Below, piece by piece: positions 815 to 45,516 of a stretch of DNA of 58,660 nt. Source of the DNA: a virus (taxonomy: Duplodnaviria; Caudoviricetes); the IMG/VR virus record IMGVR_UViG_3300029327_000042, positions 1 through 58,660 of that record; one strand, written 5' to 3'. Both the position numbers and the translations under genes were made by a program. The notes below the pieces were generated by a model. That model saw only the letters and a program-made list of their open reading frames with translations. It was not told the DNA's origin and searched no databases. Position 1 is the first letter of the stretch; the number at the start of each line of letters is the position of its first letter.

Positions 815-3748
815 TTAGAAAGGAACAAATGTTATGAGTTTTGGGACGGCCACAAATGTATTCACCAATAACGAAGCGCTATTTATTGTTAAAAACACTG
901 TATCCCATGTGTCCCAGCACAGATTAAGCACACTAGTATGAGTCCCATCGGCATTGTCACTTTCAATAAAGTTGACTGTACACCAGTGAGAATCATTATT
1001 CCAAGTATCATTGATCAGTAAGTATTCGACGCCGTTTATCCTTTTATAACCAGTCGCCAAAACAGCATGTCCTCCACTAAGATCCGGCATACCTATTTGG
1101 GAGACTACTACCCATCCGGAAACATAAGCTGGTTCTCCGTTCATGAGCTTTTGTTTCAATACATCTAACGTCTGGTGTGAAGACAGAAGCAATGGATTGA
1201 GGTAGTCGATGTCCCACTGTACATAAACGTTTTGGGGACTTGCCGATGTTTGAATGCTAACGGAATAATCCCTCATTTTTTCCAGCGTTACCTGATCATC
1301 AACCCACGTCCCGCCCTTTTGAATGTAAGCATCGAGGTACATTGCCATCGACTCGAGTATCTTCTCAGTGTTTTCCGAGTAAGCGGAGTTGTCAAGCTGA
1401 ATGCCATAGGGATTCATACTATTAAAATAGTAGAGAAACATCATCGTAAATGAAACCGGCACACACCCCGCCGGTCCAGCACTACCCGTACCATCAAAAA
1501 ACCGATAGGCTGAATCTTTTTGGTTTATGGCAGGAACCGACAAGGAAAATTCAGTATCAGGTTCATTCCCAGTCGTTTGAGGTCTGAATACCGCTTTGAC
1601 CGCTCTTGAATTTAAAAGGGTTAAGGGCAGAGTGTCCTGCGCATAGAGTGCATTCTCCACAACCCAAACGTCAAAAACCCACCCTGGATTTGCCGCTGCA
1701 GTAAGGGTTGCAACAGTTCCGGGACTTACGGAAGTTTGGCAACTTTGAGAACAGATGAGACCATTCACGTCATTGGACACACTTCCAGCATCAGTTGGAT
1801 CGACCGTTACGGCGAGTGTATTAACGGGGAGAAAAACAGCTTTTAAGGTATTGGCTGCATACATGGTAACTTGAAGAGGATTCTGCGTGTATGGTTTGTT
1901 GTAGCCGTTCAGTTCCCAATGATCAAAAACGAATCCTAGATTTTGATGAGCCGACACTTGTACGTTCTGCTCCGAAGGGTAATCCTGCTGACAAGTGTTT
2001 GGTGGTGATCCGTTGCAAGAAATCCCACCAATATCACTTGTTATGGAACCACCTTCCACAGGGCTAGAAACTACGGTGAGCGAGTAGATCGGTTGAAAGA
2101 CAGCGGAGAGATGCATCGGGTCCGTTATGGTGAAAGTGTCAGTTGAACTAGTTGACACTACATTGCCTCCCACCATCCAATGGACAAAAGTGTAACCAGG
2201 TTGGGGTTGAGCGGTGAGGGTGATTTGCTGATTGTAATCCAATGCTTCTTCACAGTCGCCGGGGCAACTGATCCGAGGATTTTGTGGAATATTTTCTACA
2301 ACCGTTCCGCTGAATTCCGGACTAACGCTGACACTAATCCCCGGCAGTGGGGCGTAATATGCGGTCACGGTCTTGCTCGCGTTCATGGTGACGGTCAGCT
2401 GAGTCGTGTAATACGTATAATTCTGACCATCGTACCAGTAATGCAGGGTGTATCCTGGTTCTTCGAGAGCCGTAAGCGTGACCTGCTGGTTGAGAGGGTA
2501 TGCCTCGTTGCAATCGCTTCCTTGCGAGCCGCAATTGATCCCCGGCCCAGAAATCGATCCTTGGTTGGAGGGATTAGCCACCGTGGTTAACGTAAGCTGA
2601 CCAAGATTGAACAGCGACGGAGAAGGAACTTTTTTGTCAACGTTAGTCCCATCACCAAACCGGCCATTGTTGTTAAACCCCCATGCCTGAACACTTCCGT
2701 CTGACTTACCCGCAAAGCTAGCCTCTGCTTCCATCATAGCTCTGGGTATTACTGTATAAGTTTGTCCGGGATTGACGTTATATGGGGTGAATTTGTCGGT
2801 GGTGGTATTATTTCCGATCTCGCCCTTATAATTGTATCCCCACGTCCATAAGCTTCCGTTCAACTTCAATCCCATGCCGTGCAAGTACCCAGCGGAAATA
2901 GCCGACCAATCATTTTCTCCTGGAATTTTATAGGGGGTCAGCCTATATCCGCTGTTCCATCCATCTCCGGATGCTCCATTATTTTCGGTGCCCCAAACCC
3001 ACCGCGTATGATCGGTTTTCAACGCTATGGTAAAGTTACTTCCTCCTACCGCTTGCAACCAATCCGTAGCCGTACCAACTTGTAATGGACTGAGGACATT
3101 CACTCTGGAATTATTACCCATTTCCCCGAAACTATTACTTCCCCAGACCCACAGTGTTCCATTGGTTTTTATTGCCAACGAATGATATTCTCCGGCGCTA
3201 ATGGATTTCCAATCGGTATCAGTTCCCACTTGAATTGGTATAAGAGAACTGTCCATTGTTCCCCTTCCTAATTGTCCAGCGGAATTATATCCCCAAGCCC
3301 ATAAGGAACCATCAGATTTAAGGGCAAGTGTGTGAATTGCTCCGGAAAAAACATCTACCCAATCATTGTCACTGCCTATTTGGCCTGGCTGATTACTATA
3401 GTATTGCGCACCAATATTTCTACCAAGGGCATAACCCGAAGTATTTGCGCCCCATGACCAGAGCGTGCCATCGGATTTTATCCCAACACTAAAATAACCA
3501 CCGGCAGTAATTTTCGTCCAGACGCTCGGTAATTGCACCGGGGAAAGGGCATTGATTGTTGTTCCATTACCCACTTGACCATAATTATTTTGACCGCTTG
3601 CCCACAATGTTCCATTAACATCAAGAACAAGGGTATGAAATCTACCACCGGCGATTTGCGGCTGGACAGCCATAGCTGCCGTACTCGCACAAACGATGAA
3701 CAGCGAAGCTAAGAGTAATATTAACCATCCTCTAGACGATAAATACAT
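815..3748 (-). CDS. secreted RCC1-repeat protein with Ig-like/InlB-B-like repeats and C-terminal papain-like (C39/C10-like) peptidase
   Basis: Signal peptide after AAGGAG RBS (ATG 3748). About 7 repeats of GxxHxLALKxDGSLWxWGxNxxGQLG, 4 repeats of VTLTAxxxPGYxFxxW, and GCVPVS...GGHAVLATGY...LINDTW (Cys-His-Asp/Asn). Confidence 0.8.
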   Translation of the reverse strand: MYLSSRGWLILLLASLFIVCASTAAMAVQPQIAGGRFHTLVLDVNGTLWASGQNNYGQVGNGTTINALSPVQLPSVWTKITAGGYFSVGIKSDGTLWSWGANTSGYALGRNIGAQYYSNQPGQIGSDNDWVDVFSGAIHTLALKSDGSLWAWGYNSAGQLGRGTMDSSLIPIQVGTDTDWKSISAGEYHSLAIKTNGTLWVWGSNSFGEMGNNSRVNVLSPLQVGTATDWLQAVGGSNFTIALKTDHTRWVWGTENNGASGDGWNSGYRLTPYKIPGENDWSAISAGYLHGMGLKLNGSLWTWGYNYKGEIGNNTTTDKFTPYNVNPGQTYTVIPRAMMEAEASFAGKSDGSVQAWGFNNNGRFGDGTNVDKKVPSPSLFNLGQLTLTTVANPSNQGSISGPGINCGSQGSDCNEAYPLNQQVTLTALEEPGYTLHYWYDGQNYTYYTTQLTVTMNASKTVTAYYAPLPGISVSVSPEFSGTVVENIPQNPRISCPGDCEEALDYNQQITLTAQPQPGYTFVHWMVGGNVVSTSSTDTFTITDPMHLSAVFQPIYSLTVVSSPVEGGSITSDIGGISCNGSPPNTCQQDYPSEQNVQVSAHQNLGFVFDHWELNGYNKPYTQNPLQVTMYAANTLKAVFLPVNTLAVTVDPTDAGSVSNDVNGLICSQSCQTSVSPGTVATLTAAANPGWVFDVWVVENALYAQDTLPLTLLNSRAVKAVFRPQTTGNEPDTEFSLSVPAINQKDSAYRFFDGTGSAGPAGCVPVSFTMMFLYYFNSMNPYGIQLDNSAYSENTEKILESMAMYLDAYIQKGGTWVDDQVTLEKMRDYSVSIQTSASPQNVYVQWDIDYLNPLLLSSHQTLDVLKQKLMNGEPAYVSGWVVVSQIGMPDLSGGHAVLATGYKRINGVEYLLINDTWNNDSHWCTVNFIESDNADGTHTSVLNLCWDTWDTVFLTINSASLLVNTFVAVPKLITFVPF

Positions 3749-4064
3749 TACGTTCTCCTTTGGTGTGAAACTTATTGGTGAGTGTTCAGCATACAAGTCA
3801 TTACCTAACAAGGTATTGTATTCAATTGTAAAAGAACTCAGATACCTCCTTTCGTTTTAGTTTTAGTATCTATGACACTATATACTATGATAGCAGACGG
3901 CTATAATATGGTCAAAACTAGCAAGTCGTTAAGTGTGTTTGGTGAATGTTGTTGGTTTTGATATGAAGGAGAAAGGGGCTTTTAGTAGATGAGATTATAA
4001 ATCCCAGTTCATTCATGCATAAGACCCCTTCCCATGTTTTGGGTTGGGGTCTTTTTTGAAAGAA

Positions 4065-4235
4065 CTAATATCCACATTCCGCGCAACTTGTTTCGATCTT
4101 CCCGCCGCCCAGGGACACAATAATGATCGTGTTCGCGAAGTTGTGGCCGGGGGTGGCCTGGTGGCCGCAGTCGAGCTTGATGTGAGTGCCGGCCAGCAAG
4201 AGCTTGAGATCTTCTGTGGTGAGTTCCTTTTTCAC
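4065..4235 (-). CDS. 56-aa putative Zn-binding protein (not in ORF track)
   Basis: MKKELTTEDLKLLLAGTHIKLDCGHQATPGHNFANTIIIVSLGGGKIETSCAECGY. GTGA overlap with the DUF932 stop; GGAGG upstream. Confidence 0.65.
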   Translation of the reverse strand: MKKELTTEDLKLLLAGTHIKLDCGHQATPGHNFANTIIIVSLGGGKIETSCAECGY

Positions 4236-4963
4236 CGTCCACCCCCTCCCAGCGCGGTGATGGTGTGGTGCAGTTGCACATGCTTTTCCATCACCGTGAG
4301 CGGGGGTGAGGATTTCAACGCCTCGGTACAGGCGTTATAGAGACTCCACATGGTTCTTGGCCGAAACTCTTCATAGGTCGGGCGCAGCCATTCTTCTTTC
4401 ACGACGGTGAGTTGACGCGGACTGATTATGTCTCGCCCGTAGAGCAGCCCCATAAGTTTAAAGGCCTCCAGATCGTTCACGGGGTAACTTTTCATCGCTG
4501 CCGCATCCTCGGTGATCTTTGCAAAGCAGTCCTGGCTTCGGTAAAGCGTTTGAATGCAGGTTGTTTCCAGTGCGAGCCAAACATTTTTGGTATGTTTTTT
4601 CATCACCACGATCTCGCCTTGGAGGGCCAGATTGTCGCAGACAAAGACGCTGGCCCCCATGGCCAGGCCAATGGACATGGAGCGGTCGTAGCTATTGCGA
4701 AAGGCCAGCGAGAGCGCGAGATCGCCCACATCCTTTTGAAACTTGAAGAAGGCGAACATCTGGTTACCGTTCCGGGCCAGTCCGTAATGCTCGCCAACGA
4801 GCAGGTAATCTTTCAAAATGACTTGGGAGATGGTCAGGAGCTTGTTCGCCAAATGATAATGGCTCACTGGTTTATAGGTGTCCGACTCCTGAGGCAGCGG
4901 GATCAAATCTAACTGCTCACGGGTTACCTCTTTGCCATCAACATGCATCATAAAGCCTTCCAT
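4232..4963 (-). CDS. DUF932/DUF945-like protein
   Basis: YKPVSH...RNSYDRS...GASVFVCDNL...KKHT...TMWSLYNACTE motifs; GGAGG RBS. Confidence 0.8.
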   Translation of the reverse strand: MEGFMMHVDGKEVTREQLDLIPLPQESDTYKPVSHYHLANKLLTISQVILKDYLLVGEHYGLARNGNQMFAFFKFQKDVGDLALSLAFRNSYDRSMSIGLAMGASVFVCDNLALQGEIVVMKKHTKNVWLALETTCIQTLYRSQDCFAKITEDAAAMKSYPVNDLEAFKLMGLLYGRDIISPRQLTVVKEEWLRPTYEEFRPRTMWSLYNACTEALKSSPPLTVMEKHVQLHHTITALGGGGR

Positions 4964-5141
4964 AGTGACCTCCTGTGGGTTGGTTTTTCCTCAAAGCGAC
5001 GTAAATCATTGAAAAGAACCATGCTTCCCGGTGGGTTTCTTGGTTAACCGGGAATTACGATGGGAAAGAACTGAAAGGGTGGGGAAGCGGGACATTTTTG
5101 CCAGAGATCCGGGGGCGGGAAACGATTGGTTAACTGGAGGG

Positions 5142-5660
5142 TTAATGCTTGGACTTCGGTTCGGGTTGCTTTTCTGTGGCGGTTATCCCGAGGGCCACCG
5201 CATCAAACATGTTCTGGTGAAACTCCTCTTTCCAGGCGCGGTCCTGCGTCAGGTACACTTTGAGTTCGGGGAATCGCAAGATAATGGCTCGGGCCACCTC
5301 CGCTTTACTGGCCCGGCCATTACCGCAAATGTGTTTTTTCACGGTGCTGGGCGCAATGCAGATCACTTTGAGCTGCTTCCTTTTGCCGAGGGCCTTGATC
5401 TCGTCAGCAAAGACATTGAGCAGCGCGGCATTGCGGTTATTGGCAAAGAACGTTTTTTCCACCACCAGCACTCCCGGTTTCAGATCCGCCAGGAGTCGCA
5501 GGATCACCCGGCGACCTTCTTTGAGGGTGAAATGAGGGGTGGGGCCTTTGCGAAAGACCGTCACCCCGTGGTAGAGCAGCTTTTGTTTATCGAGGAGGGC
5601 CACGCCCATATAGCGGGTGCCGGGGTCAATGGCCAGAATATTGGTTTTGCTTTTTGGCAT
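5142..5660 (-). CDS. RuvC-like Holliday junction resolvase, catalytic residues intact
   Basis: ILAIDPGTRYMGVA, VVEK, PSTVKKHICGNGRASKAEV, MFDAVALG. Start at 5660 or 5690. Confidence 0.8.
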   Translation of the reverse strand: MPKSKTNILAIDPGTRYMGVALLDKQKLLYHGVTVFRKGPTPHFTLKEGRRVILRLLADLKPGVLVVEKTFFANNRNAALLNVFADEIKALGKRKQLKVICIAPSTVKKHICGNGRASKAEVARAIILRFPELKVYLTQDRAWKEEFHQNMFDAVALGITATEKQPEPKSKH

Positions 5661-5706
5661 AAGAGGGAGGATGAGCGAAGAGACCCCCATAATATCTTCG
5701 CTTTGC

Positions 5707-6204
5707 TTAATTATTATCCAATTCGTGGGCGCATAGAGCAGCGAGCGCCACCGCTTCAAAGAGCCTGATGTGATAGGGATTCTTAGCGGCCTTTTCTCGG
5801 TCGAGCTCATACATGAGGTCCGGATACTCCGTGGCAAGGATCTCGGCCATGGCCCGTTTGTTACTCTTTCGCTGTCCCGTAAAGAATCGTTCTAACCGTC
5901 TGAGCGGATACTCGCGCACCTTAGCGCCGTTTGACTCAGCCAGAATGGAGATCTCCTGGGTTAACTGGTTCAGCGCACGGGAGCTGCGACAGCGATCCAG
6001 CTTTTTTATCGCCAAGGCGGCTGGCTGATACCGCTGCAATAATGTCAGGAGAATGTATTTGGCTTTACCGGCCTTCTCCCTGGTTGAACGGCCCCTGAGC
6101 ACCTTGACTCGCCAGTCCCGTAGTTGAGTCCCCTGCAGGACGGCGATGCCAAGGTAGCGCGAGCCGGGATTAACGGCCAGAACGGTCCGTGGTGTTGGCA
6201 TCAT
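5707..6204 (-). CDS. RuvC-like paralogue with degenerate active site
   Basis: VLAVNPGSRYLGIA (D>N), LAIKK (E>K), LFEAVALA (D>E). Colinear with the neighbouring RuvC. Confidence 0.75.
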   Translation of the reverse strand: MMPTPRTVLAVNPGSRYLGIAVLQGTQLRDWRVKVLRGRSTREKAGKAKYILLTLLQRYQPAALAIKKLDRCRSSRALNQLTQEISILAESNGAKVREYPLRRLERFFTGQRKSNKRAMAEILATEYPDLMYELDREKAAKNPYHIRLFEAVALAALCAHELDNN

Positions 6205-6928
6205 GTTGTTTGATGAGATAGTTAAAGAGCGCCCCGCGACTTTTCTTGATGTGTTTGGCTGGTATGAGCATGATAGTGGCAAAGACCTGCCGTAAGAGGG
6301 GCTCGGGGTACTTTTTTGCGTAGGACCGGTAGAGCGCAAGGCCCTTAAGATCATCGAGCCCCTCAGCCAGATCATGGGCCAAGAGATCTTCTCGGGATGG
6401 TCCCTGGTAACCAGGCGTGCCACGGACCCGATTAAGGAACGCTTTTTTACCTTCGATATCGATTTTTAATAATCCTCTTTTTATCGATCTTTCGTTAGCC
6501 GTTGCATGGGAGGCGAATTTTTGCGAAAGCGAAGGGATATTTTGTGTCTGGGAGACCGTTTGAGAGGTGGGCCGCATGCCACGGCTGAGAGCTGAGGCCT
6601 GCCCCGGCTGGGGTGGCTGTATGGCGTTACCACCGGAGGCTTTCCATTTCTTCACCTGGATGGAAAGACACCGTCCGTTACTTTTCGTGGCGATATAGTC
6701 CCCCTCGCGAAGGATCTTGAGCCAGCGAAGGACCGTATCTCTTTCCAGGCCCATGTCGGTACAGATCGTCTGGATCTTCCGAACCAACATGCCGGTCTGG
6801 CGATTGGCACCGAGCACCAAATAGAGAAAGAGCCAAAGAGCATTTTTCATTTTGCGATAATGGGTCGCCCGTTCATCCATGATGAGCCCGGTCCAGAGTG
6901 GTGCCCACCACTGTTTGTTTTTTGCCAT
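6170..6928 (-). CDS. putative replication initiator (winged HTH N-terminus, DnaD-like C-terminus)
   Basis: ALWLFLYLVLGAN...ICTDMGLERDTVLRWLKIL winged HTH, low-complexity linker, C-terminal KKSRGALFNYLIK. Confidence 0.6.
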   Translation of the reverse strand: MAKNKQWWAPLWTGLIMDERATHYRKMKNALWLFLYLVLGANRQTGMLVRKIQTICTDMGLERDTVLRWLKILREGDYIATKSNGRCLSIQVKKWKASGGNAIQPPQPGQASALSRGMRPTSQTVSQTQNIPSLSQKFASHATANERSIKRGLLKIDIEGKKAFLNRVRGTPGYQGPSREDLLAHDLAEGLDDLKGLALYRSYAKKYPEPLLRQVFATIMLIPAKHIKKSRGALFNYLIKQHDANTTDRSGR

Positions 6929-6940
6929 AGGCCAAGGGAG

Positions 6941-6975
6941 TTCGCATCTGGCGCGGCGGGGCGGCCAGATGCGAA
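6941..6975. repeat. perfect 12-bp inverted repeat with 11-nt GC loop
   Basis: TTCGCATCTGGC-gcggcggggcg-GCCAGATGCGAA, 12 bp upstream of the Rep-like start. Confidence 0.9.
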
Positions 6976-7021
6976 ACGGTCAGTCTTGGGTTGATTAGTT
7001 GTTAAAACAGCACCGGATGGA

Positions 7022-7360
7022 TCACCAAGAAGGAGTGGAAAAAGTACGGTCCCGTTCCTGATTGGAAACGGCCTCCTCAGAAGAGTTGGGAAAATAACAC
7101 TGCTCCTTTTCGGTAAGTTCGGTGCGCACCTGTTGTAAGTGCTCCCCGAACAGGGCTTCCACCATGGTGCGATAAAGAACTGCCAGGCGAAAGAGATTAA
7201 GGGTGTCGGGTACGCACACGCCTGTTTCCCAGCGCGAAATCATGCTAGGGCTCTTGAGTCCTAAGATCCGGGCCACCTCCCGTTGAGTGAGTCCTCGAAC
7301 ACGGCGGTATCTCCGTAACCCATTGGCAATCAGTTTTCGCTTGGGAAAAACGTCTGTCAT
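7022..7360 (-). CDS. XRE-family HTH regulator
   Basis: LRRYRRVRGLTQREVARILGLKSPSMISRWETG. Confidence 0.85.
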   Translation of the reverse strand: MTDVFPKRKLIANGLRRYRRVRGLTQREVARILGLKSPSMISRWETGVCVPDTLNLFRLAVLYRTMVEALFGEHLQQVRTELTEKEQCYFPNSSEEAVSNQERDRTFSTPSW

Positions 7361-7578
7361 AGATGGTGCTTACATGGAGAGCGCGATGGCTCAGGAGCAT
7401 CCGAATTTTTACGGAATTGTCGCCCGCTTGTTTTCATACACAAACGGGGGTGCGCCTGAGCCAGCTACGTTGAGCACGCTCTGGTTCTACCGTAGCAGAG
7501 TGAAAAAGGCTGAAAAGCGGGGACAAATTGCTGGGTAAAGCAACCAGCTGAAAGGGCTATGAGAGTGGGGAAGAGTGT

Positions 7579-8859
7579 CTAATGTCTGGTATTGAGGGAC
7601 TGTTCGACCTTGGCGCACGGCGTGCCGTGAGCGGAACGTGAGGCGGCAATTACCGCTGATTTAAAGGAATTTTCCGTTGTAAAGGGGGGCAAAGTGACCG
7701 CGCTGAACGGCTTGGAGACATGGCCGTCGATCATAAGTTTTAGATAAATATGGTGGTTGGGAAGACTTACCAGGGATTCATCGTCAAAGACCGGCAAAAA
7801 TTCTTTGGCCAGGTATTGGGCGTCTTCGGCCCCGACCCGGAAGGCCAAGAGCGTACCGGCGTTTCCGAAGATCGCTGACCGGATCTTAGGGTCCAACTGG
7901 TTGATGTATTGATGCGCCAACACGAGATGAAGGCCGTATTTCCTTGCCTCAGAGAGAATGTCGGCAAACGAGAGGGTCAAAAAATTGTGAACCTCATCGA
8001 CATAAAGGTAAAAAGGCCGGCGGAGCTGCTCAGGGATATTGCCCCGGCTCTGAGCGGCCAGTTGCATCTGGGAAACCAACATAGAGCCTAAGAGCGTGGA
8101 GGTATCCTCGCCGATCTTTCCTTTGGCCAAGTTACAGAGCACGATCCGGCCCTCATCCATCACCTGGCGGAAACGGAAGGCGCTTTGCGCTTGGCCGAGC
8201 GTGTTGCGAAGCGGTGCGCTCACCGCGAACTGGCCGAACTTGTTGAGGATGGGAGAAATCGCTTCAGTCCGAAACCGGTCCGAATAGCGGTCAAACTCAC
8301 TGCGCCAGAAATCACGAATGTCCGGGTTGTTCACGAAAAACATGGCTTCCTTTCGAAACGCCGGTTGGGTGAGCAGGCACGTAACATCGAGCAGAGTGGT
8401 CCCCGGATAGTCCAAAAGCGTCAGCAGGGTGTACCTCAAGATATGTTCAAGACGCGGCCCCCAGAATTCCAGCCACACCTTTTTGAACACGCCAAGAAGA
8501 CCGGAGGCGACCAGTGGACGGTAATCTTGCGACACTTCGGCAATGGGATTGAAGCCGACCGGATAGGCAAGATCGGCGGGATTAAAGTAGATGACGTCCT
8601 TGATCCGCTCCGGCGGGATATGATCGAGAATATCTTCCACCAGGTCCCCGTGCGGATCAATCAAGGCCAAGCCGTGGCCGTTCCGGATATCCGAGATCAC
8701 CAGGTTGCGAAGCAAGGTGGATTTGCCGGTCCCGGATTTACCGATCAAGTACATGTGGCCGCACCGATCCTGCTCTTTAATGCCAAAGATCTTCTGGTTG
8801 TCCCGGTAATTCGTGGCGGCAAAAGGGGTAATGGCGTTTTGTTTTGGAGGGTTGTTCAT
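7579..8859 (-). CDS. VirD4/TraG-like (HerA/FtsK superfamily) ATPase without TM anchor
   Basis: HMYLIGKSGTGKS (Walker A), LIDPHGDL, YLYVDEVHNF (Walker B), SEARKYGL...AHQ. Start 8859 after AGAGGT. Confidence 0.85.
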   Translation of the reverse strand: MNNPPKQNAITPFAATNYRDNQKIFGIKEQDRCGHMYLIGKSGTGKSTLLRNLVISDIRNGHGLALIDPHGDLVEDILDHIPPERIKDVIYFNPADLAYPVGFNPIAEVSQDYRPLVASGLLGVFKKVWLEFWGPRLEHILRYTLLTLLDYPGTTLLDVTCLLTQPAFRKEAMFFVNNPDIRDFWRSEFDRYSDRFRTEAISPILNKFGQFAVSAPLRNTLGQAQSAFRFRQVMDEGRIVLCNLAKGKIGEDTSTLLGSMLVSQMQLAAQSRGNIPEQLRRPFYLYVDEVHNFLTLSFADILSEARKYGLHLVLAHQYINQLDPKIRSAIFGNAGTLLAFRVGAEDAQYLAKEFLPVFDDESLVSLPNHHIYLKLMIDGHVSKPFSAVTLPPFTTENSFKSAVIAASRSAHGTPCAKVEQSLNTRH

Positions 8860-9000
8860 ACCTCTATGGTACCGGCGATAAAGGCCTCTAAAAAGAGAGG
8901 CATTGTGGGCTTTAACGGCAATTTCGCCCGGCTTGTTGGTTCTCCTCACTGCGGTAGGCTGAAGGCAGCTCTTTTAAATCTTTCTACCCAGGAGGAAAAC

Positions 9001-9378
9001 ATGGCAAAGACCGCCCACTGCATCGAAGTAAGGAGCGGCGACGGGACCCTTGTGCTCAGTCTCCATTTCGTGGAAAAGGAGATCGGGCCGACGTCGAGAA
9101 CGGAAACCACATCCTACAAAAAAACAGAAACCAAACAGGAAAGGAGGCAATCAAACGGTTCATCCAGCGGCGAAGGCACCATCACCGACGCCCAGAAACG
9201 ATTCATGTTCCGGATCTTGGCCGACCAGGGCATTGAAAAGGAAGGCGCCTACCAATTCTTAAAGGAGAATTTCGGGGTCGAGATCCTCAAAGACGTGTCC
9301 AAGTCGGAAGCCAGCCGGATGATAGAGCATCTTTTGGGGAAAAACGGGGGAGGCAACAGCGATGGACCACCTTTCTAG
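9001..9378 (+). CDS. hypothetical protein (125 aa) coupled to the downstream nuclease
   Basis: AGGAGG RBS before ATG 9001; ITDAQKRF helical motif; overlaps the next gene. Confidence 0.7.
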   Translation: MAKTAHCIEVRSGDGTLVLSLHFVEKEIGPTSRTETTSYKKTETKQERRQSNGSSSGEGTITDAQKRFMFRILADQGIEKEGAYQFLKENFGVEILKDVSKSEASRMIEHLLGKNGGGNSDGPPF

Positions 9379-10114
9379 CAGCCAGATCAATCTCTACTCG
9401 CAGTGCAGCCTCAAATACAAGTTCCAGTATGTGGATTTGCTCCCCAAACCCTTCAAAGCGTCCGGGCTGGTTTTCGGCAGCGCAGTTCATGCTGCCCTGT
9501 CCTGGTTCCATACGGAGCGCCTGGCGGGAAGAAATCCCACCCTGGATAAGCTGCATAAGGTCTTTGAGGCGGACTGGTACGGCCAAACCATCGAAAGTCA
9601 CGTCCGCTACAAAGAGTGGGAAACGCCAGCGGGCCTCATCATGCTCGGACGAAGTATTCTCGGATTGTATTACCGGGAACCGCATGACGGGGTGCAGGGC
9701 ACTGAAATTCCATTCACAGTGCCCTTGGAAGATCCGGTCACCGGCGAGCGGTTGGGGATCAATCTGGAAGGCTTTATCGACCTCCTTGAACAACCCGACA
9801 CCATCGTTGAATTCAAGACGTCGCTGAAAGCGATGGACATCAAGGACGTGAACGTGCAGCTCAGTGCCTACAGCTACGCCTACGAATTCCTCCACCAGCG
9901 GCTGCCCAGGCTCTTTAAGGTCGTGAATTTCATCAAATCCAAACGGCCTCGGATACTCGTGCTGGAGACGCACCAATGCGATCACCGGCGGTTTTTCAAC
10001 CTAGCCAAGAAGGTGTTCGAAGGTATCCGTGCGCAGATCTTTTTCCCGAAGCACAGCTTCATGTGCGCCGGGTGTGAGTTCGCGGAGCCATGTCAGGGGT
10101 GGGAAGGGAATTAG
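9362..10114 (+). CDS. PD-(D/E)XK nuclease, RecB/AddB/Cas4-like with putative Fe-S cluster
   Basis: HLSSSQINLYSQCSLKY, GSAVHAAL, GFIDLL...IVEFKT, QLSAY, CAGCEFAEPC. Confidence 0.85.
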   Translation: MDHLSSSQINLYSQCSLKYKFQYVDLLPKPFKASGLVFGSAVHAALSWFHTERLAGRNPTLDKLHKVFEADWYGQTIESHVRYKEWETPAGLIMLGRSILGLYYREPHDGVQGTEIPFTVPLEDPVTGERLGINLEGFIDLLEQPDTIVEFKTSLKAMDIKDVNVQLSAYSYAYEFLHQRLPRLFKVVNFIKSKRPRILVLETHQCDHRRFFNLAKKVFEGIRAQIFFPKHSFMCAGCEFAEPCQGWEGN

Positions 10115-11014: not shown

Positions 11015-11611
11015 ATGAAACAAAAAATCGCTGCCATTTATGCCCGCGTGTCCACGGACCGTCAAAAGGTGGCCATGCAACTCGAAGAGCTGAGAGCCTT
11101 CGCTCAACGTTCTGGCTGGATCATCTTTAAAGAATTTACGGACGAAGGCTTTACAGGAAAGCACACCGTGCGGCCAGCTTACAATGCCATGATGAAAGAG
11201 GCCCGGCACCGCAAGTTTGATGTGCTCCTGGTCTGGAAGCTGGATCGACTGAGCCGGTCTATGAAAGATCTGATTAATACACTCGATGAATTACGGCACT
11301 TGGGCATTGATTTCGTCTCCTATGATGACCGACAGCTCGATACCACCACCCCCGCCGGCAAGCTTATGTTTCACATGATCGCGGCGGTGGCCGAGTTCGA
11401 GCGAGAGATTATTCGGGAGCGGGTAATTGCGGGCCTCGAAAGCGCCAAACGCAAAGGCAAGCGCTTGGGTCGCCCGCCAGTGGCACCCCTGGTGTTGGAA
11501 CGCGCCAAAGCACTGAGAAAGCAAGGCTTGAGCTTTGCGGCAATCGGGAAACAGCTTGGCGTCTCGGGCGATGTGATCAGGAAGCGCCTTAACGACAAAA
11601 TAAGCTCATAG
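11015..11611 (+). CDS. serine recombinase (resolvase/invertase) with C-terminal HTH
   Basis: AIYARVSTDRQ, VWKLDRLSRS, AEFEREIIRERVIAGL, GKRLGRPP. Confidence 0.92.
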   Translation: MKQKIAAIYARVSTDRQKVAMQLEELRAFAQRSGWIIFKEFTDEGFTGKHTVRPAYNAMMKEARHRKFDVLLVWKLDRLSRSMKDLINTLDELRHLGIDFVSYDDRQLDTTTPAGKLMFHMIAAVAEFEREIIRERVIAGLESAKRKGKRLGRPPVAPLVLERAKALRKQGLSFAAIGKQLGVSGDVIRKRLNDKISS

Positions 11612-11963
11612 AGGTTTTAATCTTCAGGTTTGTACCTTGATCCGGGAGCAGATCTTTTTTCCCGGGCAAAGTTTTATGTGCTTAGGCTGTGAGTACACCG
11701 AGCAATGCCGGGCGTGGGAAGGATCATAATCGCTCAGTTCTTTCAACTCCAAGGAAGTAGAAAACGCTACTTCCTTGTTTTGACAGTATGTAGCAGAGTG
11801 GAGTATCCTGAAAGAAAGCGAGCTAGCAGAATTCTCACCGGCGGAACATACCGCCATGGATAGTGTACAGAAGCCAGTACGGGTAAAAAAGAGGAAAATC
11901 ATGGCCCAACCGGAGTGCCCAAAACATAATTCCGAAAATAAAGAGTTAAAAGCAGTCGAACAT

Positions 11964-14900
11964 ATGAATACTGATCTATCATTTATAACAAATGAAAAAA
12001 ATCAAAGCCTCAAAGACCGATTTGAGGTTCTTATTCGGGATACGGCATTCTTCGATTGCCTGGTAGGTTATTTCTATACCAGCGGGTTCCATGCGCTGTA
12101 TAAGTCTCTGGAAAAGACAGAAAAGGTTCGAATTCTCATTGGCATCAGCACCAACAAGCAGACTTTTGACCTGATTGCTAAAGCTAGTGATCCTCGGCAA
12201 CAAGTCATTGAATTTTCTCATGCAGAAACGAAGGAAGAGGTTGAGAGACTCGTTGAGCAGGAATTGGCAGACTCAGACGATAATAGAAACGTCGAAGAAG
12301 GGGTGCATAAGTTTGTTGAATGGGTCAGGGATAAAAAACTAGAAATTCGGGCCTACCCATCCCAGAATATACATGCCAAACTATACATTATGACCTTTTG
12401 TGAAGGAGACCGCGATATAGGGAGGGTAATTACCGGTTCCAGCAACTTTACCCAGGCCGGACTCATTGATAATCTGGAATTTAATGTCGAGTTAAAAAAC
12501 CGCAGTGATTATGAGTTTTCACGCCAAAAGTTCGAGGAACTGTGGCAGTCAGCAGTGGATGTCAGTGAGCGGTATGTTCAGACGATCCAGGACAAGACCT
12601 GGCTCAGCCAAAGTATCACGCCCTATCAACTCTATCTAAAATTCCTTTACGAATATTTCAAAGATGAACTCAGCCAAACCGATGAGGTTTTTGTAAGGTA
12701 CCTCCCCGAGGAGTTTAAGAAACTCGAATACCAAGAGCAGGCAGTCCTCAATGCCAGAAAGATACTGTTGGAGTATGGCGGCGTTTTCATCTCCGATGTC
12801 GTAGGACTGGGCAAAACCTATATTTCCGCCATGCTGGCGGGACAATTGGAGGGGAGAACGCTTATCATTGCCCCGCCTGTACTTTTGGAAAAATCCAATC
12901 CCGGCTCTTGGACTAACGTGTTTTCGGACTTTCACGTGCCTGCTGATTTTCAATCCCTCGGGAAACTGGACGACCTCCTGAGCAGGGGAACTGATAAGTA
13001 CGCCAACATTATTATCGATGAAGCCCATCGTTTCCGAACGGAAACGACCGCGACCTACGAGAAGCTGGCGGAAATCTGTCGCGGCAAACGGGTGATCCTG
13101 GTGACCGCCACTCCCTACAATAATGCGCCCAAAGATATCCTCAGCTTACTTAAGCTCTTTCAGAAAGCGAAGAAGAGTACCATTCCCAATCTGCCCGACC
13201 TGGAAAGCTTTTTCAGCCGACTTGAGCAAAAATTGAAAAAACTCGACCGCCAGAAAGATTATGACAAATACATTTCTATCGTGAAAGAGAACGCGCGTGA
13301 AATACGGGAAAAGGTACTGAAATATTTAATGGTACGCCGCACTCGGACAGAGATCGTAAAGTATTTTTCCGATGATATTAATAAGCAAGGACTCAAATTC
13401 CCCAGTGTGGAGAAGCCTGTCCCGCTTTTTTATGAACTAAACGAGAAAGAAGATCAGGTCTTTACTAAAACCATTGAGCTCATCGTTAAAGACTTCAAAT
13501 ACGCACGGTATATGCCCCTTCTTTATTATCAAGGCAAGGTGGACCCGCTTGAGCGGCAATCACAGAAAAATATGGGCCGGTTCATGAAGATCTTGCTGGT
13601 TAAACGCCTGGAAAGCAGTTTTTTTGCCTTTCGGAATTCGATTGACCGCTTTTTGCACTCCTATGAAATGTTCATTAAAGAGTTTGACAAGGGCAATGTC
13701 TATGTGAGTAAGAAGCACACCAGCAAGATATTTGAATTATTGGAAGACGATGATGATGAGGCCGTGCAGCGCCTGATCGACGAAAGCAAAGCTGAGCGCC
13801 TTAGCAGTGGCGATTTTGGAGAAGAATTCCGGAATGATTTGCAGCACGACCGTGATGTGCTTCTGGAGATTAAAAAATTCTGGACGAACATTCATCGCGA
13901 TCCGAAGCTGTTAAAATTTATCGACGGGCTCTCCACTGATCCTGGATTGAAAAAGAATCATTTGATCATCTTCACCGAATCCAAGGAGACTGCTAACTAT
14001 CTCTTTACAAATTTGCACCAGAAGTACCCTGACCAGGTGTTATGCTATACTGGCTCTTCCAGCGAAGCGACACGCGATAAAGTCATCGAAAATTTTGACG
14101 CGCGCGCTCGTCATCCAAAGAGCGAGTACCGGATACTGGTGGCCACAGAGGTTTTGGCTGAAGGCGTGAACTTGCATCGCTCCAACACGGTGATCAACTA
14201 CGACATTCCCTGGAATCCTACCCGCATGATGCAGCGAGTTGGCCGCATAAACCGGGTCGATACCCCGGCTGATAAGATTCATACGTTTAACTTTTTTCCC
14301 ACTACTCAATCCAACGACCAGATCAAACTCAGGGAAGCGGCGGAAGCCAAAATCAATGCCTTTTTAACCCTGCTGGGTGGCGATGCCGAATTGTTGACCG
14401 AAGGGGAACCCATCGGCTCGCATGAACTCTTTAACCGATTGATCTCAAAACAGGCTTTAGAAGGCGAGGATGAAGCGGGGGAGACCGAATTGAAATATCT
14501 GCATGCAATAAAAGAGATTCGCGATAAAGACCCTGACTTGTTCGAAAAGATCAAACGGCTACCCAAAAAAGGACGCACGGCTAAATACTTCGCTGAGCAG
14601 GCTGATTCACTGATCACCTATTTTCGAAGGGGTAAACTCCAGAAATTCTACATGGCCGCGGCTCAGCCGGAAGCGCACGAGCTGGACTTTATCTCAGCAG
14701 CCAAACTGCTGGAGAGTGGCGTTGATGAACCAAAGAAAAAATTGCCGGGACAGTTTTACGATCTGATGGATAAGAACAAAGAGGCCTTTGTTTTCTCGAC
14801 CACCGAGGAGCAGTCCCAACTAAAGCAAAGAGGCGGCGGGCGCGACAGCGCGGCCAACATCCTTAAGATTTTAAAAGTTACGATGAAGAACACTCAAAAG

Positions 14901-15158
14901 CTGACGGATGATCAGGAACTCTACCTCAAGAAAGTATTCACCCAGCTTGCGGAAGGCGGCTTGCCAAAGCAGACAGCAAAACAAACGTTGCAGGCTCTAA
15001 ATGATTTAAAAAATGATTTGATCAACCCCTTTAAGGTACTGGGGGTGCTGCAAACTCACATCCCGGCTAAGCTGCTCGAACAGCATTATGCCGAACAGAA
15101 TCCGGCGGTATTTGGCAAACGGGAAGTCATTTTATCCATGTATTTGAGTGGTGAATAA
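11964..15158 (+). CDS. PLD nuclease + SNF2-like helicase (restriction component)
   Basis: IHAKLYI...GSSNFT (PLD), SDVVGLGKT, IIDEAH, LVTATP, AEGVNL, PWNPTRMMQRVGRINR. Start placed at MNTDLSF; the track start is 11856. Confidence 0.88.
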   Translation: MNTDLSFITNEKNQSLKDRFEVLIRDTAFFDCLVGYFYTSGFHALYKSLEKTEKVRILIGISTNKQTFDLIAKASDPRQQVIEFSHAETKEEVERLVEQELADSDDNRNVEEGVHKFVEWVRDKKLEIRAYPSQNIHAKLYIMTFCEGDRDIGRVITGSSNFTQAGLIDNLEFNVELKNRSDYEFSRQKFEELWQSAVDVSERYVQTIQDKTWLSQSITPYQLYLKFLYEYFKDELSQTDEVFVRYLPEEFKKLEYQEQAVLNARKILLEYGGVFISDVVGLGKTYISAMLAGQLEGRTLIIAPPVLLEKSNPGSWTNVFSDFHVPADFQSLGKLDDLLSRGTDKYANIIIDEAHRFRTETTATYEKLAEICRGKRVILVTATPYNNAPKDILSLLKLFQKAKKSTIPNLPDLESFFSRLEQKLKKLDRQKDYDKYISIVKENAREIREKVLKYLMVRRTRTEIVKYFSDDINKQGLKFPSVEKPVPLFYELNEKEDQVFTKTIELIVKDFKYARYMPLLYYQGKVDPLERQSQKNMGRFMKILLVKRLESSFFAFRNSIDRFLHSYEMFIKEFDKGNVYVSKKHTSKIFELLEDDDDEAVQRLIDESKAERLSSGDFGEEFRNDLQHDRDVLLEIKKFWTNIHRDPKLLKFIDGLSTDPGLKKNHLIIFTESKETANYLFTNLHQKYPDQVLCYTGSSSEATRDKVIENFDARARHPKSEYRILVATEVLAEGVNLHRSNTVINYDIPWNPTRMMQRVGRINRVDTPADKIHTFNFFPTTQSNDQIKLREAAEAKINAFLTLLGGDAELLTEGEPIGSHELFNRLISKQALEGEDEAGETELKYLHAIKEIRDKDPDLFEKIKRLPKKGRTAKYFAEQADSLITYFRRGKLQKFYMAAAQPEAHELDFISAAKLLESGVDEPKKKLPGQFYDLMDKNKEAFVFSTTEEQSQLKQRGGGRDSAANILKILKVTMKNTQKLTDDQELYLKKVFTQLAEGGLPKQTAKQTLQALNDLKNDLINPFKVLGVLQTHIPAKLLEQHYAEQNPAVFGKREVILSMYLSGE

Positions 15159-15160
15159 TT

Positions 15161-18100
15161 ATGGACAGACAACAGGCACGCAATCTAATCAAAGAAACAT
15201 TTGAAAAGCCGTTTGAAAAGGCGCGATTTTCTACGTTTATTAAGAACCTTTTAAATCGCAGTGAGGACGCGCCATTTACTTACAAGGGGCAATACATCCC
15301 TGACGCTTATAAGCCCTCCATAAGCACGTTGGAGCGCATCGCCAAATTCACCGATGGCGAACAGAAGGTTGATGTATTGATTATCAGGCTCAGGAAAGAA
15401 AGCTCGCTGGAGCGTGCTCGCACTATGCAGCGGAACTTTGTCGCCTGGTATCTCAATGGCAGCCGGGGTGGAGAACTGAAGGATGCCGCTCTGGTAGCGT
15501 TCGTATCCCCCGATGAAACTGATTGGCGGTTTTCGCTGGTTAAGATGGACTATAAATTTGAGCAGACCACGACCGGCAAAATGAAAGTGAAAGAAGAATT
15601 TACCCCTGCTCGGCGTTGGTCTTTTTTAGTGGGTATCAGCGAAAAAAGCCACACAGCCCAGAGTCGACTGATCAACATTCTAGCAAATGACGAACAGTCA
15701 CCGAGTCTCACCGAATTGGAAGAATCTTTCAACATAGAAACTGTTACGAATGAGTTCTTTTTGAAATACCGGGATCTTTTTGTTCGCGCGAAAGAAGCAT
15801 TAGATAAAGTGGTTCAAAACGATTCCCGCATCAAAGCCGATTTCGAAGCTATCGGAGTGAACACTGTTGACTTTGCCAAGAAATTGTTGGGACAGATCAT
15901 TTTTCTCTACTTTTTACAGAAAAAGGGTTGGTTTGGAGTTAAGGGGAATGACAAGTGGGGGGACGGCTCAAAGCAATTTTTGAGGGAACTGTTTGAAGGA
16001 AAGCACGGGACATATAAGAATTTCTTTAACGACATTCTGGAACCCCTCTTTTATGATGCATTGTCGAGAGATCGCTCGGATATCGACCACTGGAACGACC
16101 ATTTCAAATGCAAAATTCCCTTTTTAAATGGTGGGCTCTTCGATCCTATTGGTAATTATAGCTGGCATAATGCAGACATTTTGCTACCCAACGAACTGTT
16201 TTCTAATCGAAAAGCGCAGATGGGTGAAGGTAACGGTATTCTCGATATCTTCGACCTCTATAACTTTACCGTCAAAGAAGACGAGCCGATGGAAAAGGAA
16301 GTGGCTATCGACCCGGAATTGCTGGGTAAAGCATATGAGAAATTTAATGCCATTCGACCGGACAACTTTGAGGAGTACAAGAAGGCACTAACTAGCGGGA
16401 AAAAAGGCGATGAAAGCAAGTTTAACAAGCAATTCGGCGTCTATTATACCCCGCGTGAAATAGTTCATTACATGTGCCAACAAGGTCTAATAAATTATCT
16501 CACAACTGAAATGGCAGGGTCGGAGGGCAATAAATTTATCAGTAAATCAGATATTGAAACCTTGATTCATTTGGGTGAGCAGGTCGGTGAGAATGAAGCG
16601 CGGGTCGAAAGCCATGGTACAGAGACCAGCGCCTATTCTTACAAACTACCTGAGAGCATCCGCGAAAATGCCGAACTAATCGATCGAAAACTGGCCGGCA
16701 TTACAGTTTGTGACCCGGCCGTGGGGTCCGGTGCCTTTCCAGTTGGTATGATGAGTGAGATCGTAAAAGCGAGGAATGCGCTCTCGATATTTATTCAAGA
16801 TGAGGAACGAACTGTTTACGATTTTAAACGTCGCTGCATTCAGCATTCCCTGTACGGTGTGGATATAGATCCTGGGGCTGTAGAAATCGCTAAGCTTCGC
16901 TTATGGCTTTCATTAGTGGTTGATGAGGATGACATAAGACAAATTAAACCCTTACCCAATCTGGACTACAAGATCATGCAGGGCAATAGTCTGCTAGAAG
17001 AGTTTGAAGGCGTAAAGCTCTTTGATGAAAAACTTATTGCCTCTATCGGTTTTGATAAAGAAAAACGAATCAAATCTTTAAAGGAAAGACAGTCCTCACT
17101 ACAAAAGGAGTACTTTGAACTTCATTCACAAAATATGCTTAGTGGTAGCAAGCAGTCTGTATTAGAGCAGGAGCTAAAGAAAATAAGTTTAACGTTAAAG
17201 AAAATTGCCGCTACAACGAAACCGGTATTTGCTAATCCAGGTTTATTTGACGCTGTAAGTGAGGCGCAACATAAAGCGAGCCAATTGAAGTTGCTTCACA
17301 AGGAACTATTTGAAACTACTGATAAGAAGAAAAAAGATGATATAAAAAAGACAATTGGCAGGTTGGAATGGGAACTTATCGAGGTAACGCTTAAAGAAGA
17401 GGGCAAGAGTTCTGAACTTAAGAAAATCGAAGAATTTAAGAAATCAAACATTAAACCATTTTTTCTTTGGAAGCTAAACTTTACAGAAGTGTTTCAGGAA
17501 AAAGGTGGTTTTGATATCGTTATTGCTAATCCACCGTATGTTAGACAAGAACAAATCGGTGACATAAAGCCTTCGCTCAAAAGAATTTATAGTTCATATT
17601 CCGGCAGGGCTGACTTGTATGTATATTTCTATGAGATGGCTACATGTTCGCTTCTTTCAAAAAGAGGAACACTCTGCTTCATATCGTCCAACAAGTGGCT
17701 ACGCGCTCAATACGGAGAGGGATTAAGGCGAATTTTATCAAGCGCTTGTCGTCCCAATACCCTAATAGATTTTGGCGAACTGCCTGTGTTTGAAGAAGCA
17801 GCCACTTTCCCATTGATATTTATTGGCGCTCGCGGCAATTCATCGGATTTGACCTTTGTGCAAATTCGCTCACTTACTCCACCGTATCCAAATCTTCCTC
17901 TTATTGTTTCCACAGAAGGTATGAAGATATCATCTGGTAAGTTGTCACATCTCACTTGGTCCTTTGGGAATAGCTCCGAAGAAGGGCTTCTCGCTAAACT
18001 TAGAACATTTCCCGGTAGGCTCGATGACTCGATGATAATGGCAGGGATAAAAACGGGCTTTAATACAGCTTTTTGGATTGATGCATTTTGTCGTGAGCAG

Positions 18101-18778: not shown

Positions 18779-18849
18779 TGTAGTGCCTTGATCTACTGAT
18801 TGACTTCTGCCTTGTGCCTATAGTTTCGGTAGAGGGTAGACGCGAGTTA

Positions 18850-19584
18850 ATGAAGTATATGAAGATAACTAACGAAATCTCCGAATTGTTGCAATCATAC
18901 GTGTATGTTTTCATCGATCCTCGGAACGGTGAGCCGTTTTATATTGGAAAAGGTTGTGGCAACCGTCTCTTCTCACACCTCGAAGATAACTCTGACTGCG
19001 AAAAGGTGGACCGCATTGCTCAAATTCGTGCGTCCGGTATGGAACCCGAGGTAGATCTTTTGCGGTACGGTTTGACAGATCAGGAAGCCGCTTTGGTGGA
19101 GGCAGCCGCCATTGACTTGATCGGGAGAACTTATCTTACCAATCGCATAGCTGGATATCACAAGGGAAGTTTCGGCCGCATCACTTCACAAGAGGTCATC
19201 GCTATGTTTACTGCCAAACCAGTGGAAGTGCGTCATAAAGCTATCCTAATAACGATAAATCAACTGTATCGAAGTAACATGGCACCAGAAGAGCTGTACG
19301 AAGCTACCAGGGGGATTTGGGTTCTCGGAGAGCGAAGAAATAAAGCGGAATATGCCATGGCTGTGTATCAGGGGATTGTCCGGGAGGTTTACCGGATTCG
19401 GCAGTGGTATCCAGCGGGGACTTTGAAATACACAACCCGGGACCCGTCGGAGTTTCGCAATACTCCGAATCAGGGCCGTTGGGAGTTCGAGGGGGAAGTG
19501 GCTGAGGAAGCGATTCGGAAAGAATATGTTGGCTTCTCTGTCGGCAAGGGGGGACAGAATCCGATTCGGTACAAGGGTATTTAG
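18850..19584 (+). CDS. LEM-3-like GIY-YIG nuclease domain protein
   Basis: YVYVFIDPRNGEPFYIGKGCGNRLFSH, EAALVEAAAID, LTN. Confidence 0.8.
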   Translation: MKYMKITNEISELLQSYVYVFIDPRNGEPFYIGKGCGNRLFSHLEDNSDCEKVDRIAQIRASGMEPEVDLLRYGLTDQEAALVEAAAIDLIGRTYLTNRIAGYHKGSFGRITSQEVIAMFTAKPVEVRHKAILITINQLYRSNMAPEELYEATRGIWVLGERRNKAEYAMAVYQGIVREVYRIRQWYPAGTLKYTTRDPSEFRNTPNQGRWEFEGEVAEEAIRKEYVGFSVGKGGQNPIRYKGI

Positions 19585-19611
19585 GCAACTATTTAAGATC
19601 GCATAATAACT

Positions 19612-20337: not shown

Positions 20338-20343
20338 CCGCCT

Positions 20344-21282: not shown

Positions 21283-21342
21283 TAATTCGACTCTGGTGGT
21301 CCATCATCGATAATGCATCGGACTTCTATTGAGTGATAGCTT

Positions 21343-42717: not shown

Positions 42718-42905
42718 GACCCGAATGGCAGCTTAAAGGCATCAAAAAGTGGTTGATCGATTTGAACATGACGCAAGATCAGATCGCAAAGGCCGCAGGT
42801 GTGAGCCGCCCCCTGGTTAGCCTCACCATTTCAGGCCGAAGGAAGAATAAACAAGTGATTGACTTCCTTTTATCTAAAGGGTGCCCGAGGAACTTGCTCG
42901 ATTGA
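42714..42905 (+). CDS. Ner/Cro-like HTH
   Basis: MTQDQIAKAAGVSRPLVSLTISGRR. Confidence 0.75.
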   Translation: MRPEWQLKGIKKWLIDLNMTQDQIAKAAGVSRPLVSLTISGRRKNKQVIDFLLSKGCPRNLLD

Positions 42906-45511: not shown

Positions 45512-45516
45512 CGCCA

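Follow-up and report, generated by a model that had tools for sequence, protein, structure and literature searches.

The 58,660-nucleotide stretch of DNA analyzed here (the window), which covers positions 1 to 58,660 of the IMG/VR virus record IMGVR_UViG_3300029327_000042, carries on its minus strand two adjacent genes for RuvC-fold paralogues. One of them (positions 5142 to 5660; the live copy) keeps the catalytic residues of the Holliday junction resolvase RuvC, whereas the other (5707 to 6204; the dead copy, or pseudo-RuvC) has lost all three of its catalytic acidic residues. We find this dead RuvC subunit to be fixed beside the live one and tied to a replication-type protein, here called Rep-like, in a widespread family. 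The reading that we prefer, and hold tentatively, is that the dead copy would be a noncatalytic RuvC-fold subunit coupled to the Rep-like protein and that, together with the live copy, it could make a dimer with one active site that nicks DNA. A tandem pair of RuvC and dead RuvC, in bacteria or in mobile elements, is undescribed in the open-access literature that we searched.

A live RuvC and its catalytically degenerate paralogue

Both open reading frames (ORFs) match the Pfam RuvC family (PF02075; cut-off, 22.2 bits), the live copy at 41.4 bits and the dead copy at 22.3 bits, and their products are 28% identical over 159 residues (BLASTP, E value 2e-19). A first-pass annotation, made from the letters of the window, had described two adjacent RuvC-fold paralogues of ~165 to 170 amino acids (aa), one with its acidic motifs kept and the other with all three altered, and the motifs are exactly as it reported: AIDPG, VVEK and FDAVA in the live copy and AVNPG, AIKK and FEAVA in the dead copy. 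In a profile alignment to Escherichia coli RuvC (1hjr), N12 of the dead copy falls on the D of ILGIDPG and K67 on the E of FAIEQ, and N12, K67 and E150 together replace the catalytic D/E/D. The annotation was also right that the dead copy is intact and overlaps the gene for the Rep-like protein, as its ORF encodes 165 aa and its start overlaps the 3' end of the Rep-like ORF by 35 nucleotides (nt). For the live copy, the longest ORF with an ATG start runs from 5142 to 5690; homologues support the ATG at 5660, which gives a protein of 172 aa.

RuvC acts as a homodimer with two active sites, a symmetry that explains its clean cutting of Holliday junctions. Both copies resemble bacterial RuvC (PF02075; 1hjr, 4ep4/4ld0) in fold and size, and the live copy keeps the catalytic D/E/H/D as well as the aromatic FF pair. 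Bacterial RuvC, however, pairs two active subunits and works with RuvAB, whereas here one partner is dead and, as had been noted from the sequence, neither ruvA nor ruvB is nearby: the whole 58.7-kb window has no match to RuvA_N or RuvB_N.

The live copy has the features of an intact RuvC-family nuclease. Its catalytic residues (D22, E78, H158 and D163 in P0001 numbering) are kept in 88, 88, 87 and 88, respectively, of 88 live-copy sequences. The D and the E align with the RuvC active-site motifs of chains in the Protein Data Bank (PDB); the C-terminal H and D were placed through the family alignment and a published residue list, because the hidden Markov model (HMM) alignments stop before those residues. 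That list sets out the active residues of Thermus thermophilus RuvC as Asp7, Glu70, His143 and Asp146 (PMC3592405). The FF pair of the live copy aligns with Phe73/Phe74 of the same enzyme. Live-copy homologues fall into 1306 clusters at 90% identity (E<=0.001, from 1478 candidates), and the 120 listed among them are 64 to 90% identical and come from many phyla. The protein matches the PHROG family "RuvC-like Holliday junction resolvase" at 1e-18. It scores below the cut-offs of the housekeeping equivalog models, with 47 bits against 163 for NF000711 and 33 against 100.65 for TIGR00228; the dead copy reaches 18 bits against the NCBIfam equivalog cut-off of 163. Full-scoring housekeeping RuvC proteins (121 to 166 bits) are encoded elsewhere in three host genomes that bear the module. 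Judged by these profile scores, the live copy is distinct from housekeeping RuvC.

The dead copy has its own conserved residues at the former catalytic sites. Among 76 full-length dead copies from the fetched loci described below (66 clusters at 90% identity), these sites hold N in 74, with S in the other 2, K in 75 and E in 75, which runs counter to the possibility, raised with the first-pass annotation, that homologues of the second copy usually retain D/E/D. A word-indexed search returned 64 dead-copy homologues, all of ~165 aa, and a profile of the dead family, run on 1.84 billion cluster representatives, matched 2197 at E<=0.001, 949 at 1e-10 and 146 at 1e-30. The 150 best representatives at 50% identity all score higher with the dead profile than with the live profile; at the first site they carry N, S or a hydrophobic residue, with D found once, and the K is kept in 143 and the E in 138. 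The replacements are therefore specific, and within the former metal site K67 could pair with E150. Where active RuvC has its FF aromatic pair, the dead family has L-H. Of the 150 representatives, 55 belong to an "S-K-E" branch, which carries Ser at the first site and lies among P0210 to P0336.

An AlphaFold (AF2) model of the dead copy, built on the family alignment, has a predicted local distance difference test score (pLDDT) of 92.8 and a predicted template modeling score (pTM) of 0.90. Its top Foldseek matches are the bacterial RuvC structures 7xhj, 1hjr, 4ep4 and 6lw3, with E values of 3e-9 to 2e-8 and template modeling (TM) scores of 0.70 to 0.81, and lower matches include MOC1, poxvirus and phage RuvC, Ydc2 and TEFM (8u8v, 5ol8). 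The dead copy has the RuvC (RNase H-like) fold and lacks the catalytic D/E/D; it has no PHROG match.

We estimated the ratio of nonsynonymous to synonymous substitution rates (dN/dS) for 96 pairs of loci with dead copies 68 to 99.5% identical, the pairs being nonindependent and including near-duplicates. The dead copy gave 87 usable pairs, with a median of 0.164, and the live copy 78 pairs, with a median of 0.085. The check on selection proposed at the outset thus gave no sign of decay, and the substitution pattern indicates that the dead copy is a maintained family under purifying selection. That it is instead a decaying duplicate without function has a negligible probability. The loss of all three acidic residues would fit such decay, as would two loci in which the dead copy, beside an intact live copy, is cut down to its C-terminal third (L040, 4905 to 5159) or interrupted by an in-frame stop (L053, 4446 to 4952). 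Decay is refuted, however, by an intact ORF of ~165 aa in 76 loci with conservation of specific residues, by the median dN/dS of 0.16, by at least 146 clusters at 50% identity at E<=1e-30 and by a confidently predicted fold.

Conservation of the module and its place in mobile elements

A search of metagenome contigs with only the live copy as query gave at least 591 pattern matches and at least 416 confirmed stretches. We kept the best 80 of these stretches as loci; many are short fragments of metagenomes, with near-duplicates among them. A dead-family ORF lies directly upstream of the live copy in 78 of the 80 independently fetched loci, a recurrence far beyond chance. The two exceptions are L085, which has no upstream sequence and cannot be assessed, and L086, which has a variant arrangement, so that the active subunit keeps company with an inactive paralogue throughout the assessable loci of the usual type. 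In 85 of 88 cases no more than 60 nt separate the dead stop from the live start. Farther upstream, 51 loci extend far enough to be checked for the Rep-like gene, and in 50 of them its end lies no more than 150 bp from the dead start, so the order Rep, dead, live is conserved along with the pair itself. The Rep-like and dead genes overlap by exactly 35 nt in 31 of these 50, and this recurrent overlap implies strict translational coupling. In 44 loci the gene immediately before the Rep-like gene encodes a homologue of the XRE-family regulator, and the two genes often abut or overlap.

In the variant shared by L086 and L109, the order is the Rep-like gene, the live copy, an XRE-like gene and a third RuvC-like gene. 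The products of this third lineage (L086, 2028 to 2600; L109, 1057 to 1608) have N/E/D and S/GK/D at the catalytic sites, the first acidic residue being lost, and the third gene stands in for the usual upstream dead copy.

The first-pass annotation had suggested a survey for the order Rep-deadRuvC-RuvC-VirD4. The Rep-dead-live part of that order held across loci, whereas the VirD4-like ATPase lies outside it: the ATPase (T4CP cluster) is present in 16 clustered loci and absent from many long ones. A DUF932 gene occurs in 6 loci and a PD-(D/E)XK nuclease gene in 5 clustered loci, plus L106 and L107. Given these counts, we take the core to be XRE-Rep-dead-live and the rest to be optional. In the window, all four core genes are on the minus strand, beginning with the XRE-family helix-turn-helix regulator (7022 to 7360; Pfam HTH_3, 3e-9), followed by the gene for the Rep-like protein of 252 aa (6170 to 6928) and the two RuvC genes. 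A scan of positions 4900 to 7650 found no promoter or terminator on the minus strand, which lends weak support to a single operon. A look through sequencing runs for positions 5100 to 7400 listed none with RNA.

The Rep-like protein has an N-terminal winged helix, probably of the DnaD/initiator-like kind, a disordered linker and a conserved C-terminal four-helix domain of ~70 aa, and its AF2 model is confident at residues 28 to 98 and 179 to 249. Its homologues use two alternative versions of the N-terminal winged helix with one common C-terminal domain, whose consensus is ...REELLA.DLA.ALND...YLSY..KYPE..LR......IP...IKKSRGALFNYLI. Among 37 homologues, Pfam matches are to HTH_36 (33), RepL (5) and DnaD_N (4). 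The PHROG matches are to "DnaD-like helicase loader" (4.3e-8) and "replication initiation protein" (1.9e-4). In structure searches with Foldseek and VIA-wide only generic winged helices were matched, for the N-terminal domain; for the C-terminal domain, the nearest named clusters in the ESM Atlas are RepB_C and Bac_RepA_C (0.85 to 0.87), which we treat as leads only.

A dead-family search of species-representative genomes returned 13 loci, labeled Planctomycetota, Nitrospirota, Aminicenantes, Thermodesulfobacteriota, Syntrophobacteraceae, Clostridia, Bacteroidota, Methylobacillus and Dehalococcoidaceae; among the 13 is a contig, identical to the window, of a Desulfarculales metagenome-assembled genome (MAG). 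In a sample of 401 genomes from the host phylum, 6 have the module. Recombinases, either large serine or small tyrosine enzymes, are encoded a few genes upstream of the module in related loci, and in at least eight loci (clusters c5, c6 and c17) host genes for a branched-chain amino acid (liv) transporter lie directly 3' of the live RuvC gene. Because the liv genes begin right after the live copy, the module sits at one end of a small integrated element, and the repeated occurrence of element ends by the liv cluster indicates a preferred integration site. The loci with an element end next to the Peripla_BP_6, BPD_transp_2 and ABC_tran cluster are L009, L010, L038, L041, L047, L054, L084 and L089. 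From these neighborhoods we conclude that the module belongs to integrative mobile elements spread over many phyla, and XRE-Rep-dead-live may serve as a compact marker for unstudied integrative elements of anaerobic sediment, peat and sludge bacteria.

A phage or plasmid origin of the module was considered and rejected: with the live-copy protein, tblastn gave no match at E<=1e-10 in 50,697 phage or 72,556 plasmid records, and IMG/VR yielded two loci, at 26% identity. A terminal direct repeat of 20 to 200 nt, as a sign of circular forms, was found in none of the 80 metagenome loci, most of which are partial records.

Candidate modes of action of the pair

In the mechanism that we propose, the operon of XRE regulator, DnaD/RepA-like Rep protein, pseudo-RuvC and RuvC would serve replication or DNA processing of integrative elements. 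Pseudo-RuvC, translationally coupled to Rep, would act with Rep on DNA, and where live RuvC is present, the two paralogues would most likely combine in an asymmetric dimer that has one active site. Such a heterodimer, which we infer along with its nicking activity and its role in replication, would nick one strand of branched or extruded DNA and would not make the paired cuts of a resolvase. A one-strand junction or cruciform nickase had also been inferred in the first-pass annotation, which the present analysis supports in part. The 3'-OH at the nick could then serve to copy the excised element by strand displacement or as a rolling circle; in an alternative use, nicking could allow controlled processing of the element's replication intermediates. 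Wild-type/inactive RuvC heterodimers engineered in the West laboratory in the 1990s reportedly nick one junction strand; those were laboratory constructs of one protein, whereas here two diverged natural genes would supply the subunits.

The tree splits dead from live copies at a branch with support of 96/99; two of its three housekeeping RuvC outgroups are poor (one of 61 aa and one a long-branch ORF of 207 aa), and we draw no conclusion from it on the root or on the origin of the duplication. Several comparisons bear on whether the two copies work together. Across 62 loci, divergence of the dead copy correlates with that of the live copy (r 0.64) more closely than either does with divergence of the Rep C-terminal domain (0.42 for the dead copy and 0.40 for the live copy); the corresponding partial correlations are 0.57 between the two copies and 0.23 and 0.19, respectively, with the Rep domain. 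The dead copy evolves ~1.8 times faster than the live copy, with a mean pairwise identity of 0.51 against 0.68. In dimer helix B the live copy has an invariant D96/E97, and 45 of 76 dead copies place R or K opposite E97. At the D96/E97 columns E. coli RuvC has R/G, and we regard charge complementarity between the copies as a lead only. A complex prediction with residues 11 to 182 of the live copy and the dead copy scored 0.03 against a mark of 0.32; it was run without controls, and we used it neither way.

The evidence that separates the copies comes from five loci (L009, L010, L106, L107 and L108) that carry XRE-Rep-dead without a live copy. In L009 host genes come directly after the dead copy, and in L010 a 33-residue remnant of the live gene is left. 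The live copy is absent within ~7 kb in L106, L107 and L108, and the genomes of these three loci hold no second dead-profile match at E<=1e-12, within the limits set by MAG incompleteness; in G001 this profile does pick up the live copy, at 8.8e-27. In L106 the dead copy is followed by metabolic cargo genes. Between the solo dead copies of L106 and L107, dN/dS is 0.13 at a synonymous divergence (dS) of 1.4. Solo copies occupy at least three places within the dead clade, a scatter that suggests repeated loss of the live partner, and their continued selection means that the dead copy also functions without the live one, most simply with Rep.

These solo loci are the starting point for an alternative in which the two copies would have separate jobs: pseudo-RuvC, probably as a homodimer, would be a noncatalytic TEFM-like clamp or binder of branched DNA that helps Rep at the origin, much as TEFM serves mitochondrial RNA polymerase, and live RuvC would be an ordinary homodimeric resolvase that removes branched intermediates of replication, as in the replication modules of phages. 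Purifying selection in the solo loci with Rep and dead copy, the position of the solo copies at several places in the clade, the conserved 35-nt overlap between their genes, the TEFM chains among the structural matches of the dead model and the match of the live copy to the PHROG RuvC-like resolvase are all consistent with it. It leaves unexplained why practically every live copy comes with a degenerate RuvC partner (78 of 80 loci and the variant) and why the dead and live copies diverge together more tightly than either does with Rep, and on balance we judge it a serious alternative, albeit somewhat unlikely.

The preferred reading, a one-site dimer coupled to Rep, has to be set against a number of further observations in addition to the solo loci, which argue against an exclusive partnership of the two copies. 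The co-divergence analysis uses nonindependent pairs and a short Rep segment (85 aa). The window's own dead copy has E opposite E97, so charge complementarity is partial. The identity of the Rep-like protein is plausible, given a generic winged helix and weak leads. Finally, the spacer between the XRE and Rep-like genes offers no hairpin or cruciform target shared among loci. The first-pass annotation had pointed to a cruciform at 6941 to 6975, in the spacer between the XRE and Rep-like genes, and the inverted repeat there is real (a perfect 12-nt stem with an 11-nt loop), but it is unconserved at that position elsewhere. When we scanned this spacer in 36 loci, the stem of the window was the longest; in 16 other loci the two genes abut or overlap, leaving no spacer, and in 2 of the 19 other loci with a spacer (L003 and L061, 10 nt each) the stem is longer than the best of 50 shuffles. 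A hairpin or cruciform as a conserved feature of the XRE-Rep spacer is therefore rejected as window specific, and because it is unconserved, it cannot be claimed as the target.

The order and tempo of the two genes raise another alternative, that the dead paralogue is a safety catch which would restrain live RuvC as an inhibitor or antitoxin-like partner, either for addiction or for protecting host DNA until induction. The dead gene comes first and the nuclease second, closely spaced; the upstream partner evolves ~1.8 times faster; and the dead copy occurs as an orphan, while the nuclease does not. An orphan on the antitoxin side with no orphan toxin is the typical asymmetry of toxin-antitoxin pairs. 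Nevertheless, the pair follows a Rep-like gene (50 of 51 loci) with a conserved overlap and forms no free two-gene cassette, neither RuvC copy nor Rep matches the PADLOC defense models, and the orphan dead copies are still under selection at a dS of 1.4, which would be unusual for a useless antitoxin. We consider this restraining role quite improbable. In more general terms, as the first-pass annotation had offered as its own alternative, the dead copy may be a regulator.

A more specific form of the preferred reading, which we regard as unlikely, has the DnaD/RepA-like initiator recruit the RuvC:pseudo-RuvC heterodimer to the origin of the excised element for nicking. That would be a nick-primed start of replication hitherto unknown in bacteria, without HUH/Rep_trans, and the pair would be the first bacterial counterpart of the eukaryotic nucleases that join active and inactive paralogues. 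By Pfam, the Rep-like protein, both RuvC copies and the neighbors have no relaxase or HUH/Rep_trans domain. The first-pass annotation had raised the possibility that the pair stands in for a relaxase. In such a reading the pair would nick an origin of transfer (oriT) and the VirD4-like ATPase would export the element by conjugation. The lack of a relaxase domain among the genes scanned would fit this, and a VirD4/TraD-like ATPase does adjoin the module in the window and in some other loci. The chemistry of RuvC is hydrolytic, and it forms no covalent link between protein and DNA. A relaxase-like role is unlikely because such hydrolysis gives no covalent 5' protein link for piloting DNA. In addition, the ATPase is confined to 16 loci, has no obvious N-terminal hydrophobic membrane segment (by eye) and also matches HerA and mad8 models, and we assign conjugative export by the pair only a very small probability.

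Among known systems, phage RuvC-like resolvases (PHROG 159; RuvC of Lactococcus phage bIL67, 4ktw) likewise place a small RuvC nuclease beside the replication genes of a mobile element. They differ in that the dead copy has no PHROG match and the live copy has no match to phage records at E<=1e-10; in the literature searched, we found no description of a dead paralogue partner for phage RuvC-like enzymes. The logic of an active nuclease subunit with an inactive paralogue is that of Mus81-Eme1/Mms4 and XPF-ERCC1, and Mus81 is described as active only in complex with its regulatory subunit (PMC4027171). Those enzymes, however, have the XPF/ERCC4 fold, which is not RNase H-like, they are eukaryotic, and their heterodimer has been demonstrated, whereas the one proposed here is inferred. 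Mitochondrial TEFM is also a RuvC-fold protein without catalysis, a DNA clamp at the switch between replication and transcription, and has been described as a sliding DNA clamp formed by a pseudonuclease core (PMC6056719). TEFM differs in having no active RuvC paralogue, in its extra domains and in being eukaryotic, and its relation to the dead copy is detectable by fold only.

If the mixed dimer is real, bacteria would have independently reached the solution of Mus81-Eme1 and XPF-ERCC1, turning a resolvase into a structure-specific nickase of one strand. The mixed dimer would also point to an unrecognized route by which integrative elements start or process replication. The two proteins are small (165 and 172 aa) and would be easy to express, and they could provide a direct test of how nick and counter-nick are coupled in RuvC enzymes.

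Neighboring genes and the remainder of the window

The window is a mosaic, and the RuvC module lies in a segment of higher guanine-plus-cytosine (GC) content at ~4 to 11.6 kb. Accessory genes flank the module on both sides. On the minus strand, a gene for a DUF932 protein (4232 to 4963; Pfam DUF932, 3.6e-9) lies 3' of the RuvC pair, and the VirD4/TraD/HerA-like P-loop ATPase, which appears to be soluble, is encoded at 7579 to 8949 (Pfam TrwB_AAD_bind, 1.7e-11; PHROG 5156, 4.7e-56). On the plus strand are genes for a PD-(D/E)XK (Cas4-like) nuclease (9362 to 10114; Pfam PDDEXK_1, 3.9e-25) and, at the edge of the higher-GC segment, a small serine recombinase of the resolvase type (11015 to 11611; Pfam Resolvase, 1.2e-48), in whose place related loci have the large serine or small tyrosine recombinases mentioned above. 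Two repeats near the module are possible binding sites. A direct repeat, TTGGTTAAC(C/T)GG, occupies 5040 to 5051 and 5126 to 5137, just 3' of the live RuvC gene; the other, upstream of the XRE gene at 7387 to 7463, is an imperfect inverted repeat of 16 nt.

Beyond this segment lies a defense-type island (SNF2-PLD/Eco57I-type methylase) at 11856 to 25279. It encodes a 1100-aa HKD/PLD and SNF2 helicase protein (PADLOC "HKD+Snf2," 8e-47; DrmD-like), a 1205-aa methylase of the Eco57I/MmeI type with a TaqI_C specificity domain (15161 to 18778) and a 1056-aa DEAD helicase (22109 to 25279). An SNF2 gene like that of the island also flanks the RuvC module in L012 and L072. GC content is very low (35 to 37%) at 26 to 30 kb, and tyrosine integrases are encoded at 30318 to 31460 on the minus strand and 37454 to 38770 on the plus strand; the two integrases and the low-GC stretch suggest several stacked mobile elements.

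The first part of a Mu-like prophage, with a GC content of ~58%, occupies positions 42881 to 58660. It includes a Mu-type transposase (42881 to 45214; rve and Mu-transpos_C), a Mu portal protein (54690 to 56342) and a Mu-like protease (57076 to 58182). This prophage at the far end of the window, and not the RuvC module, is probably the reason why the record was classified as a virus. At the opposite end, a 998-aa ORF on the minus strand (815 to 3811) encodes a protein with a signal-like N terminus and many repeats that by eye look RCC1-like (W..G.N..GQLG).

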